Positions 1,571 through 56,229 of a stretch of DNA of 64,000 bases are shown here, piece by piece. Where the stretch lies: assembly GCA_965213685.1 (NCBI GenBank), contig CBDBZY010000056.1, positions 29,324 to 93,323 on the forward strand, given 5' to 3'. The notes beneath the pieces were generated by a model that saw only the letters and a list, made by a program, of their open reading frames with translations, searched no databases and had not been told where the DNA came from. The translations under genes and the position numbers were made by a program. Position 1 is the first letter of the stretch; each line of letters opens with the position of its first letter. The DNA is from a bacterium (GTDB lineage Bacteria; UBA8248).

Positions 1571-2941
1571 TCAGAGAGTCGGTAGACTCTCTATGTAGGG
1601 ATGGTGCCGGCCCGCCCATAGTGTGCGTACATTGGAAAGCTCTCTTAACTCGCGAACGCTCGTGTTCTAAGCCTTTCCGGACATCCAGCTATCCTATTCC
1701 GACGTTTCTCTACCCAATGATACCCCCAAAGTAACCAAAATGCATCCCTAGACTTACTACCAGGAAACGGGCGAAGTGGTGATTTCTTTTTCTTTCTTAA
1801 CAGATTTCTTTCAAACGACTTTTTTCGAAACTGGCAGAATTAATCACCGTAGTTCTTTACAGATCAACTGTAATCACTACACGTATGATCTGCCTTAACG
1901 GCATCATACCATCTTCTCAAATTAGCAGAAAGTAGAAACACTGGAAAACATGCCCATATTTGGTAGCCCATTTTCTAATAATTGTCCCGTGACACAGATT
2001 GCAAACGTGAGGGCTGGCCTCGCACGCTGCATGTAATCGCGCGAAGCCACACCGAATTATTTCGAAAGCTAGACTATCGGAGTAGCCTGTGTTTCAGCAG
2101 TATCTTATTTGCCGTTTTTTCAGAGTCGGTAAACTGTTCGTGTAGGGTTGGCACCGACAGCGGACGCTCATGTTAGGCTCTTCAAGCCCCTCGGAGCGCC
2201 AAGCGTCTTGCTAACAAACGGATACGCCTCCAAGGATCAAAATTGCATCACTGAGCTTCACTTCTGAGTATGATCCCAAAACTACGGAATCTTAGCAAAA
2301 TGTGGTGAACAGTGCTATAATCCGGTCGTAAAGATTAGGTAAACTCTCCGAGGGTAGGTAGGGATGGCGCCGACTCGCCCATAGTGCGTGTACATACAAA
2401 AGCCTTTTTAACTCCTCAGCGCTAGCGGTTTAGGCCGTTCTAGGCAACACCTATATATTTTCAGCGTTTCCAGCGTTTCTCTACCCAACGATATTTCCCA
2501 AGTAGCTAAAGTCTTAAGTTTTGAAGGGCTCAGCCCTTCTACCACAAACACACTATCATAGGTGTTGGTGCTTAACTTAAAGAAAGACAACCTCCTGTAT
2601 GGTACTGTGGAAAGGCACACGAACAAGTATGAAAACATTTACCAAAAATGTAGAGGGATGTAGGGATGGCAGTGCCAAAAACCACACAAACTACATATAT
2701 GGATGGCAGTGTGCAGAGGACTACACAAGTAACCCCATCCCTACATCCTTTTTTTAAATAGAACATGTATCTTTATAAGTTTTGTTGTGAGATTACTGGA
2801 AACAGCTTTGTGTGGACAACAAGAAAAGATGTAGGGATGGGGTTACTTGTGTAGTCCTCTGCACACTGCCATCCATATATGGTTTTTGGCACTGCCATCT
2901 CTACATCCCTCTACAATTTTGGAAAATGTTTTTCATACTTG
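1571..2941 (+). mobile_element. Palindrome-ended Helitron-like non-autonomous element, family 1, copy 1 (with two extra degenerate head modules at about 2120 and 2340)
   Basis: Head A|TCAGAGAGTC-GGTA-GACTCTCT-ATGTAGGGATGG; terminal inverted arms about 2624-2756 and 2821-2941; ends TACTTG|T. Confidence 0.85.
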
Positions 2942-3038
2942 TCAAACTATCATTCAAGATAAGCATCCGAGTGATTATTGCAGCGGGCATGTTCCCGCTT
3001 GCCCACAATGTTCAGCATTCTACTAGTAATTATATGTA

Positions 3039-53800: not shown

Positions 53801-56229
53801 AGAATGTAGCCTAGGATATACACATGTACGTACAGTATGGGACGGTACCGCACTAGTCTCTGCTCAAGTCCTTTTTCAATGGTCCCCAGTTCGAAAGAGT
53901 ACAGTACAGTAGTCCACACCCCCAACATGGAACGAGGCTGAAGCGTTGAAAGGTACACCAGTTAGATTTCTTCCATAGTGAAAGTGAAAATTACAAATTT
54001 CTAATGTACAGGTTTGATGCTGAGGACCCTGGCCAATCCCTATATACACCTACTACTGTAGGTGTGTGATAATGTGCAACACTTTCTGCAGTGCCACAAT
54101 TTGGCCAACACTATCAGAGAGTCGGTAGACTCTCTATGTAGGGATGGCGCCGACACTCCCATAGTGCGCGTACATTGGAAAGCCTTCTTAACTCGCGAAT
54201 ACTCGCGTTTTAAGCCTTTCTCGGCACGCGAATGGCCTATTCGACCGCTTCTCTACCCAACAATACCCCACAAGTAGCTAGAATGCATTCCTTGACTTAC
54301 TGCCAGATAATGGACGAAAGGTGATTTTGTTTTTCTTTCTTCTTCTTCTTCTTCTTCTTCTTTTCTTACGAGATTTCTTTCAAACGACTTTACTCGAAAG
54401 TGGCTGAAGTAATCACCATAGTTCTTTCACAGATCTACTGTAATCACTACGAAGTATGATCTCTGCTAACAAAATGTTAGTATCTTCTCTACTATGGGCA
54501 GAATCTAGAACCCCAGACAACTTTACCATATTTGGAAGCCATTTTCTAATAATTATTGTCACATGGCGCAAATTGTAAGCACGTGAGGGCGGGCCTCGCG
54601 AAGCCACGCCTATTAATTTCTCGATGGCCAAGGCTACTCGTCTTTTGTCACTGAAAAGAGCGCGTTCTTACTTCGCCGTACGATTGTACAACGAACGTTA
54701 ATGTAACTGGTATGAGTTAGCTACTCAGATACTCTGAGGAAACTACTCTAGCTCAGGACTTTTTAGAGGGGCTCAGCCAGGCTCCCAACTTCGTAAGTGA
54801 CAGAACACGAGGTTTACCCACTCGTATCTCCGCCGCTGACTAGTAGCAATGGCTGCTCTGATCACTGATATGTTTGTTGGATTTTGAATGAAACTTGTAA
54901 GAACATTTTGTGTACTATTGTACAAGAAAAAGTATACAAACAAGTATGAAAAACATTTTCCAAAAATGTAGAGGGATGTAGGGATGGCAGTGCCAAAAAC
55001 CACAGAAACTAGGTGTAGAGATGGCAGTGTACAGGCAAGACAGGATATAAAAAGACTACACAAGCAACCCCATCCCTACATCTTTCTTTTTTCTCACCGC
55101 ATGGCATTGATTTTCCCAGAATTGTCATAGCTAAACTCACAGAACAATTTCAAGGAAAAAGAAAGATGTAGGGATGGGGTTGCTTGTGTAGTCTTTTTAT
55201 ATCCTGTCTTGCCTGTACACTGCCATCTCTATGCCTAGTTTCTGTGGTTTTTGGCACTGCCATCCCTACATCCCTCTACATTTTTGGAAAATGTTTTTCA
55301 TACTTTATAAGTGAGTAGCTAGTATTCTTATGGAAAGGATGCTCGACCAATTCCCGTCTATCACAATGCTTTCACTTGCTTCAAATCTAGAGAATTTCGG
55401 GGGGGGGGGAGGGGGGGGGGGGGGGGGGGAATCCCCGGGTGCAATCCTCTTTGGCAGTCTACTTCCCCCTACTCCGCTACACAAGGGTACCAATATTAGA
55501 CATTTACTTTCTTTACCTCGAGGTGCTGCATACTTCCAACACATTGATCTTGTATTTCAGTGGCTATCGAAGAGAGGGTTAACACGGCACTTGGGGTGAA
55601 CCGCAATTTTAATCTCATGAGCAAGTCTGTACATAACGAGATTCGCAACGTTTCGGTGCGGCAAAGAATTGATTGTGTGGAACAGACACTATCAAAGGAA
55701 AACAGACGTCAGATTGGTTCGTGCCGCGCCTGGAAACGTTCTGAACTTGCCTTAGGTGTTGATAAATCTCGCGTAACGCGTTTTCCGGAGATGAAAATAA
55801 CGTCGAAGTTCGGCTGTCCATGCACTTACGTAATACATATAGTAGTGTTAAAACCAACGCTACAATGTGGAGCTTGTGTTGGTGGTTGCTGCTTTTGGTT
55901 CTTACTATGTGCTTGCAGAAAATGGTAGTTTTTGATATCATGAATATATCTTGTAGCCTAACTTAAGACATCTCTAACTAGTGTCTTTTCCATTATAATA
56001 TGCAGGCTCTCCCACCTCCGCCGACATCCCCGCCAGCTATAAAAGGCTACTACTTTTCAATTGTACAGTACGCTAAACAGTACCAACAGCGAAACCTTAC
56101 GTAGGTAGTACTGGTTAACTGAAACTCAAAAGCAGTCCATTCTCACCTGATGCCTGTATCGTCGCCATCAGACACATTACTGCCTTCCGTTTCCGCGGGC
56201 CTTGGGCCTTGAGGGTTGAACTTCGCCAT
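50878..56229 (-). CDS. Two-exon gene (56229-56147 + 51940-50878), 381-aa uncharacterised helical / coiled-coil protein with a C-terminal glycine-zipper membrane segment
   Basis: ATG at 56229 (MAKFNPQGPRP...DTGI); phase-2 CAG|GTGAG donor matches the phase-2 acceptor TTCTTCCATATACAG|G; total 1146 nt in frame; tandem repeats KKIQE and EKENAVAVDG; GxxxG-rich hydrophobic tail. Confidence 0.75.
52545..52642 (+). mobile_element. Short fragment of the Helitron-like 5' region
   Basis: Reverse complement of about 18482-18580. Confidence 0.7.
52743..54069 (-). mobile_element. Family 2 copy 2 (about 650 bp shorter internally), intronic
   Basis: Reverse complement of 35719-35826 plus 36480-37606; arms about 52743-52919 and 53168-53345. 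Confidence 0.88.
54114..55305 (+). mobile_element. Family 1 copy B (complete, young), intronic
   Basis: A|TC head, (TTC)n tract, arms about 54942-55091 and 55156-55305, followed by T. Confidence 0.92.

Follow-up and report, generated by a model that had tools for sequence, protein, structure and literature searches.

In this article, I will discuss a family of long palindromes found in a 64,000-nt stretch of DNA (hereafter the window), which corresponds to positions 29324-93323 of contig C56 (CBDBZY010000056.1) in assembly GCA_965213685.1. I will argue that these palindromes are very probably the 3' (right) ends of a Helitron-like rolling-circle transposon, and that the two arms of each palindrome almost certainly evolve in concert. 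The inverted repeats, with arms that are 93-99% complementary, lie where an earlier note on this DNA had seen them; the note's treatment of them as free-standing elements was not borne out, each palindrome being instead the 3' end of a Helitron-like element of ~1.2 kb. The copies and fragments of this element that the window holds are the following, in window coordinates:

20816-21987, forward strand: copy A, a complete non-autonomous element of 1172 bp running from 5'-TC to CTTG-3', delimited by the limits of its homology with ~20 full copies
20816-20850, forward strand: left terminus of copy A, consisting of TC, an 8-bp stem with a 4-nt loop (AGGGAGTC GGTA GACTCTCT) and then ATGTAGGGATGGC at 20838-20850
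21621-21775, forward strand: inner (body-side) arm of copy A, 155 nt, 98% complementary
21776-21833, forward strand: spacer (loop) of copy A, 58 nt, asymmetric, in the orientation state 'same' relative to the body
21834-21987, forward strand: outer arm of copy A, the right terminus proper, ending in CTTG
54114-55305, forward strand: copy B, complete, of the same young subfamily as A, with a CTT end and arms at 54942-55094 and 55153-55305
1569-2942, forward strand: copy 1, a full element of an older subfamily, with its palindrome at 2623-2942 and mirrored deletions in both arms
4579-5740, forward strand: copy 3, a full element of subfamily g1, with its palindrome at 5381-5740 and arms 99% complementary
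6143-7167, reverse strand: copy 4, with its palindrome at 6143-6438 and its 5' part at 6885-7167
22986-24136, reverse strand: copy 7, with its palindrome at 22986-23271 and its 5' part at 23808-24136
26191-26650, reverse strand: a short, internally deleted copy, with a partial palindrome at 26198-26422 and its 5' end near 26648
34761-35057, no strand assigned: an old, diverged palindrome belonging to this family, arms 73% complementary, no body detected beside it
3612-4429, forward strand: fragments, namely an element 5' part at 3612-3977 and an arm fragment at 4325-4429

Across the assembly, the palindrome family occupies 159 places, all of them on five low-GC contigs, and at 77 of these places the match is at least 300 bp long. 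Every palindrome has one flank that is conserved among copies and another that is unique, and the homology shared by ~20 full copies spans ~1176 bp, reaching ~805 bp past one arm only and stopping at the palindrome, which makes up the final ~368 bp of a ~1.2 kb non-autonomous Helitron-like element. The left end of this element begins with TC, followed by an 8-bp stem-loop and the 13-nt motif ATGTAGGGATGGC; the left-end motif has 79 genome-wide matches when up to 3 substitutions are allowed, 68 of which start with TC, and a host A precedes 67 of these 68 starts. Among 63 right ends, 28 read CTTG, 24 read CTT and 11 are without an assigned end, and a host T comes next in 47 of the 63 (after CTTG in 28 and after CTT in 19), with another base following in 5. 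The joined flanks of 39 copies were used as queries for sites without the element, paralogous sites were found for 15 of them, and nine were inspected: five are clean empty sites in which the insertion lies exactly between A and T with no target duplication, three fall in TA repeats, which leaves them ambiguous, and the remaining one is no genuine empty site. At the empty sites there is just one T, with A as the host base on the left; copy A likewise has an A at 20815 and a T at 21988. A ~28-bp direct repeat (GGGCTCGCT.CCGCTCGCCCAATTAA) also brackets copy A at 20783-20811 and 22041-22069, its left copy ending 4 nt before the TC and its right copy starting 53 nt past the 3' end; copy A may have inserted into another repeat or next to one. 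A foldback element, or a miniature inverted-repeat transposable element (MITE) of the terminal inverted repeat (TIR) type, was considered and rejected, since there is no target duplication and the body extends beyond one arm only.

The outer arm is laid out as an ordinary right end: the 13-nt motif recurs in inverted form, a small hairpin (7-bp stem, 3-nt loop) comes next, and the element ends 12 nt further on. In copy A, GCCATCCCTACAT at 21940-21952 is the inverted copy of the 5' motif ATGTAGGGATGGC, and the short palindrome ACATTTT-TAG-AAAATGT at 21959-21975 lies 12 nt from the end of the element, within the much larger one. This whole right end is duplicated in inverted orientation as the inner arm, on the other side of a 58-nt spacer, which means that the single strand, once peeled off, would form a 155-bp hairpin. 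When the palindrome region of copy A was folded as single-stranded DNA, it gave one hairpin of ~155 bp (-195 kcal/mol, z -35), the base of which coincides with the 3' cleavage site, such that the last base of the element pairs at the base of the stem. There is an extra small stem directly upstream of the copy A palindrome, which by eye is not clearly kept in other subfamilies.

A candidate autonomous partner lies at C64:108-116.6 kb, the sole such locus in the assembly, and carries DUF6570 (E 7e-11), Helitron_like_N, PIF1 and OTU open reading frames (ORFs); over 150-158 nt, its 3' end matches the outer arm at 88-89% identity. The ORFs scanned at this locus yielded no endonuclease domain. DUF6570 is the proposed marker of the Helentron/HLE2 clade in the part of PMC11417382 drawn on here, and the family combines an HLE2-like protein set and inverted motifs with the TC start and A-T insertion of HLE1. 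Upstream of the Rep/helicase ORFs, at C64:106960-107320, there is another long, perfect-looking palindrome of unrelated sequence.

The earlier note had claimed that the arms of a palindrome vary together within each copy, and all seven of its motif pairs are indeed present once in one arm and once, reverse-complemented, in the other arm of the same copy. Copies A and B differ at the same site in both arms (CAGGTTATA at 21722/21879 in A and CAGGATATA at 55041/55198 in B), copy 3 has TGTATAAGG at 5408/5707 and GCAGGGAAGACATG at 5472/5638, copy 4 has CAACATAGGTC at 6216/6332, and the copy 7 of the window has ACATTTATGGC at 23061/23267, with two stray extra motif matches, at 39026 and 34721, falling outside the copies. 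In copy 1, what had been described as a deletion of 17 bp (GTGCAGAGGACTAC at 2711/2851) is truly mirrored; it is, however, not a single copy-specific event, but an 8-bp and a 9-bp deletion that are present in both arms and in whole subfamilies. The same qualification extends to the claim that the variants are copy-specific, since most of them are specific to subfamilies, although for 14 private mirrored sites in five subfamilies the claim stands. Even the T/A site at which A and B differ is a polymorphism shared, in mirrored form, within the young subfamily, being A/A in 5 of its 15 copies and T/T in the other 10, and the A/A state belongs to copies 2-6, which have body variants in common too.

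To place these variants within the family as a whole, 63 of the 77 long copies were oriented by their body side (12 were dropped as the body side was unclear, and 2 as composites), and their 126 arms were aligned and used for a quick maximum-likelihood tree. The mean between-copy distance is 0.183 for inner-inner, 0.192 for outer-outer and 0.191 for inner-outer comparisons, and the mean distance between the two arms within a copy is 0.091. The tree requires 41 changes of arm type, where shuffled labels give a mean of 39.8 (range 32-49), and 89 changes of copy label, where the minimum possible is 62 and shuffled labels give 112-120. Arms group by lineage, never by arm type, and sometimes by copy: in 17 of 63 copies the tree joins the two arms as sister tips, and when raw distances are compared, only 5 of 63 copies have arms that are each other's strict nearest neighbours. 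The expectation of the earlier note that arms would cluster by copy was thus realised in those 17 copies, the clustering being otherwise by subfamily, and the contrary outcome that it had named, inner arms clustering with inner arms, was not seen among the 63 oriented copies.

The concerted pattern is clearest in the consensus sequences of five subfamilies, each drawn from 3 to 15 independent copies. Among the 142 arm columns, 34 vary and yet are mirrored in all five consensus pairs, including the 8- and 9-bp deletions, and an arm difference is present in only 3; counted pairwise between subfamilies, 181 consensus differences are mirrored and 15 are one-armed, while motif blocks within the arms are conserved across subfamilies. 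Mirrored substitutions, together with mirrored deletions of 8 and 9 bp, cannot arise twice independently, which requires the correction of one arm from the other.

The asymmetric spacer adds a second kind of record. Relative to the body, the young subfamily has it in the 'same' orientation in 14 of its 15 copies, the exception being a flipped copy at C64:543204-543570. Copy 16 and the group of copies on contig C18 described below also have a flipped spacer, and subfamilies g2 and g3 have it flipped relative to g0, g1 and g5. Component mapping confirms the flips in copies 11, 16 and 25, and the g2 spacer gave no match in that mapping. Within subfamilies, the ratios of the two orientations are 14:1, 10:0, 5:0, 5:0 and 3:0, and spacer orientation is inherited within subfamilies. 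For the earlier proposal that one arm is re-templated from the other, this means that correction of arm from arm can be retained, and that wholesale re-templating at each move does not fit. Rolling-hairpin termini of the parvovirus-like kind were also tried and set aside, since flip and flop do not occur in similar numbers among close relatives.

What happens to the arms once a copy is in place can be read from the private variants, which in the five subfamilies amount to 14 mirrored and 78 one-armed sites, the shared variants being 4 mirrored, 4 mixed and 6 one-armed. In the two largest subfamilies, there are 4 and 3 private mirrored sites against 0.024 and 0.019 expected by chance, an expectation (~0.02 per subfamily) that was computed for two of the five subfamilies. 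In the same two, one-armed sites plus twice the mirrored sites come to 31 and 23, and the private non-CpG rates of the body predict 32.7 and 23.7. In the 31 copies compared, halving the arm mismatch gives 0.69% per site, next to a private body divergence of 1.25%, and arm mismatch rises with the copy's own body divergence (Spearman 0.49, p 0.005), with a slope of only 0.25-0.42, so that the idea of dating insertions by arm divergence, in the manner of long terminal repeat (LTR) pairs, holds for the trend and falls short on the rate. Counting substitutions only, arm mismatch is 0 in 8 of the 63 copies, has a median of 2.1% and extends up to 30% as a continuum without a plateau. Copies 7 and 9, which are segmental duplicates, differ at 5 one-armed sites and at 0 mirrored sites, and the four duplicates of the C18 group (copies 25, 26, 31 and 34), with a mutual divergence of 4-6%, retain ~15% arm asymmetry; this group was considered as a possible case of a transposed imperfect palindrome and turned out to be a segmental duplication of >6 kb. 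Copy 37, despite a private body divergence of 1.7%, has 0 mismatches in 133 pairs.

The reading that I favour, with a probability of roughly 0.5, is that these are Helitron ends in eukaryotic DNA whose arms are corrected in the propagating lineage and decay after insertion. Along propagating lineages, one arm would be corrected from the other by template, either through polymerase template switching between the arms or through mismatch repair in the folded strand, and the same kind of event would occasionally invert the spacer. The portion of PMC5876387 used here describes Helitron transposition as using one strand, with the 3' hairpin as terminator, and the palindrome would therefore have an obligatory folded stage, while PMC8604942, for the part consulted, describes template switching between inverted-repeat arms as homogenising the arms and inverting the spacer. 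Since private changes are mostly one-armed, and since mismatch grows with age and reaches 30% without a plateau, the correction is placed around mobilisation, and the chances that it is mainly tied to it seem to me about even; it would then take place mainly in the DNA-synthesis and single-strand steps of transposition, and after landing, the arms would gather one-armed mutations much like the body and decay. A bolder version, which I consider a long shot, is that the flush 155-bp hairpin of the excised strand is a self-duplexing and self-checking right end, which defines the cut, rebuilds the double-stranded motifs, might prime the complementary strand in a parvovirus-like way, and has its arms corrected at each passage. 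If true, the cis-acting end would hold a spare copy of itself, and insertions could be dated by arm mismatch as they are by LTR pairs.

The correction could also happen in place, in chromosomal copies and above all in long-lived sources, by intrachromosomal gene conversion or replication template switching that is independent of transposition, as in Y-chromosome palindromes or plastid inverted repeats, with crossovers inverting the spacer. This is a possible, if doubtful, explanation, and it would readily accommodate the existence of spacer flips, the 14 private mirrored variants, the clean arms of copy 37 and an arm mismatch that is only ~0.55 of private body divergence (0.69% vs 1.25%), given also that homogenised arms and inverted spacers are what inverted-repeat template switching is known for in the part of PMC8604942 cited above; however, a process that keeps working on resident copies fits poorly with 78 of 92 private variants being one-armed, with arm mismatch climbing to 30% without levelling off, with segmental duplicates 7 and 9 differing at one-armed sites alone, and with the four C18 duplicates having kept their asymmetry. 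Whole-arm re-templating at each move, in which the flush 3' hairpin primes fold-back synthesis or a parvovirus-like hairpin transfer, is an unlikely account: the pairing of the last element base at the base of the stem, the 8 of 63 copies without arm mismatch and the nearly identical consensus arms of the subfamilies would all follow from it, but spacer orientation would then be mixed rather than inherited at 14:1, 10:0, 5:0, 5:0 and 3:0, the two loci where a body lies on each side represent adjacent or nested insertions and not the body-palindrome-body products of fold-back, and one-armed variants common to independent insertions, though few, do exist.

Two further explanations would dispense with correction altogether. 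If only copies with pairing arms were able to move, whether as DNA or RNA hairpins, and compensating mutations restored the pairing, then selection would leave conserved motif blocks across subfamilies such as those observed, which do show constraint; yet mirrored deletions of 8 and 9 bp and 34 mirrored columns are implausible twice independently, chance supplies only ~0.02 private mirrored sites per subfamily, and a single mismatch barely alters a stem of -195 kcal/mol, all of which makes selection without correction very improbable. Still less credible is an assembly artefact, in which the assembler copied one arm onto the other. It gains something from the Logan contigs of four runs, none of which bridges the palindrome, although the unique flanks are present at 99% or more (Logan-contig depth over the element in these four runs is ~1000x that of the flanks, a depth that is not a copy number), and it is contradicted by 63 copies on five contigs of up to 1.6 Mb that have copy-specific one-armed differences, by asymmetric spacers that are intact, and by mirrored variants that track the body phylogeny, as when copies 2-6 share both body variants and the A/A site. 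The four runs come from a run search that gave 22 rows from 10 studies, among which the rows labelled sponge or coral-reef metagenome had small shares only and are no evidence of habitat.

Several observations weigh against correction during mobilisation, or against the element assignment beneath it. The contrast between shared and private variants is not significant, with 4 of 14 shared and 14 of 92 private variants mirrored (Fisher p 0.25, or 0.075 without CpG columns), and 6 shared one-armed and 4 mixed sites exist; at least one of the shared one-armed sites must be a parallel mutation, being present in copy 9 and absent from its segmental duplicate copy 7, and another, an A>G change that copies 21 and 27 both have in the inner arm, may represent a mismatch handed on by transposition. 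Arm mismatch increases with body divergence at a slope of 0.25-0.42 and not 1, which some in-place correction or constraint on the arms would also explain, and both spacer inversion and arm correction can occur equally well in chromosomal replication. In addition, 'private' is defined relative to ~5 Mb of host DNA only, and the mirrored variants counted as private may come from lineages outside that sample or may have originated in place. As for the element, its 3' end is CTTG or CTT and not CTRR, and the coding sequence of the candidate partner is broken into at least 4 frames, retains only the last ~13 nt of the inner arm, and has no 5' end that could be found at the C64 locus. Mirrored variants, together with flipped spacers, form a natural record of templated correction within a long palindrome, and a whole host genome would show whether the single-strand stage of a rolling-circle transposon edits the transposon's own end and whether arm mismatch serves as an insertion clock for a DNA transposon.

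It is also necessary to consider whose DNA this is. Approximately 3 Mb of the assembly consists of contigs with 63-69% GC and a long-ORF cover of ~99%, and another ~5 Mb (C64, C18, C41, C16, C51, C7, C56 and others) has 43-53% GC and 20-55% ORF cover; for the window contig itself the values are 21% long-ORF cover and 43% GC, compared to 99% and 65% for the bacterial contigs. The window codes for a 2453-aa URGCP-type GTPase, RVT_1 reverse-transcriptase fragments, a DUF6570 ORF and an STPR ORF, and its features apart from the palindrome family include:

7506-14867, forward strand: an unbroken ORF of 2453 aa that carries URGCP and URGCP-like GTPase domains
18674-19300, reverse strand: DUF6570 ORF, within 17333-20640, just upstream of copy A
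19402-20640, reverse strand: STPR-repeat ORF, within the same 17333-20640 segment, just upstream of copy A
28469-28513, reverse strand: type I hammerhead ribozyme (Hammerhead_1), 37.5 bits, E 8e-6, above the Rfam gathering score

Judging by gene content and coding density, the window contig is probably eukaryotic DNA, and probably animal, that ended up in one bin with a 65%-GC bacterium. The mixed 'prokaryote' bin has nevertheless been reported at a completeness of 94% and a contamination of 3.7%. Bacterial repeats, whether REP/BIME or IS200/IS605 ends, are ruled out by the 21% long-ORF cover, the 43% GC, the eukaryote-type genes and the retroelement fragments, and the 'very abundant repeat' at 16721-16920 turned out to be a CT microsatellite. 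The DUF6570 and STPR ORFs of 17333-20640 may be a remnant of another Helitron-like coding element, and 17333-18333 has repeats elsewhere with 84-85% identity. What would have passed for foldback MITEs in a 'bacterial' genome are hence reassigned to Helitron ends in contaminating eukaryotic DNA, a reassignment that bears both on annotation and on the quality of assembly bins.

The family also has neighbours and relatives. A second, related family is represented in the window at 52748-53339 and 37136-37523, with an end palindrome that is larger still, made of 172-nt arms (97% complementary) on either side of a 248-nt spacer; the ACAAGTA...TACTTGT tips are common to both families, but here ATATAGGGAT replaces ATGTAGGGAT. 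Its spacer is matched over at least 150 nt at ten places in the assembly, and the two spacers in the window, as read on the forward strand, are reverse complements of each other. Elements are found in pairs, tail to tail with extra partial arms between them, at C64:977448-979897 and C64:414619-416811, which suggests insertion into or beside existing copies of the same family. The 3' flanks at C18:572825 and C64:186026 and the 5' flank at C64:51688 adjoin the same other repeat (CTCAGTTGCAGC...), near TA tracts, and this repeat may reflect a shared target preference or the end of a second transposon. Beyond the assembly, a pattern scan with a 27-nt arm motif gave no match in public metagenome contigs or genome contigs, and a scan with a 20-nt left-end motif gave one metagenome contig of 1443 bp, with a related left end (A followed by TCAGAGAGTGCGGTAGGACTCTCTATGTAGGGATGGC) at 305-345 and no palindrome in the 1.1 kb after it. 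In the titles and abstract openings listed by literature searches, there was no Helitron right end with arms of at least 100 bp and no mention of such arms evolving in concert.

How, then, does this family compare to known systems? Taking the definitions of HLE1 and of Helentron/HLE2 as given in the sections of PMC4067079 and PMC11417382 drawn on here, it resembles the canonical Helitrons (HLE1) in its 5'-TC start, in its insertion between A and T without target duplication and in the small hairpin 12 nt from the 3' end (~11 nt in the definition), and also in having non-autonomous copies that share ends with a Rep/helicase-coding candidate, matched here at the 3' end only. It differs in that its 3' end is CTTG or CTT where HLE1 has CTRR, in that the candidate partner carries DUF6570, which the same part of PMC11417382 treats as a marker of the other group, and in that the ~155-nt right end is duplicated in inverted orientation as a 368-bp palindrome that continues to the last base, far exceeding the hairpin of 16-20 nt that detection programs seek. 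An end of 368 bp lies outside that definition, so that programs looking for it would overlook or misclassify such families. With Helentrons (Helitron2, HLE2), it has in common an inverted 13-nt motif close to each end, with a stem-loop after the 3' one (the HLE2 repeats are 11-18 nt), as well as DUF6570 and OTU in the candidate partner, and with the proto-Helentron of PMC4067079, again for the portion used here, an insertion between A and T; in contrast, the HLE2 target is T-T, and the HLE2 3' palindromes in these sections are 5-10 bp, with no arm of >100 bp described in them, whereas the arms here are ~155 nt.

Foldback elements and long-TIR MITEs likewise have long inverted arms with internal sub-repeats, but here the palindrome occupies only the final third of the unit, and the left end has nothing in common with the arms save the 13-nt motif. 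Parvovirus-type terminal hairpins provide another parallel, being terminal palindromes of a single-stranded molecule that is handled by an HUH Rep and that occurs in flip and flop orientations. In the present family, however, orientations are inherited in lineages (e.g., 14:1) and are not about equal. Quasipalindrome correction by template switching offers the same homogenisation of arms and inversion of spacers, although the relevant part of PMC8604942 describes it for short repeats in ordinary chromosomal DNA, and here the 155-nt arms are the cis-acting end of a transposon. By its insertion chemistry the family is of a known kind, namely Helitron-like, and what is new is an entire right end built as a 368-bp palindrome with arms that evolve in concert.

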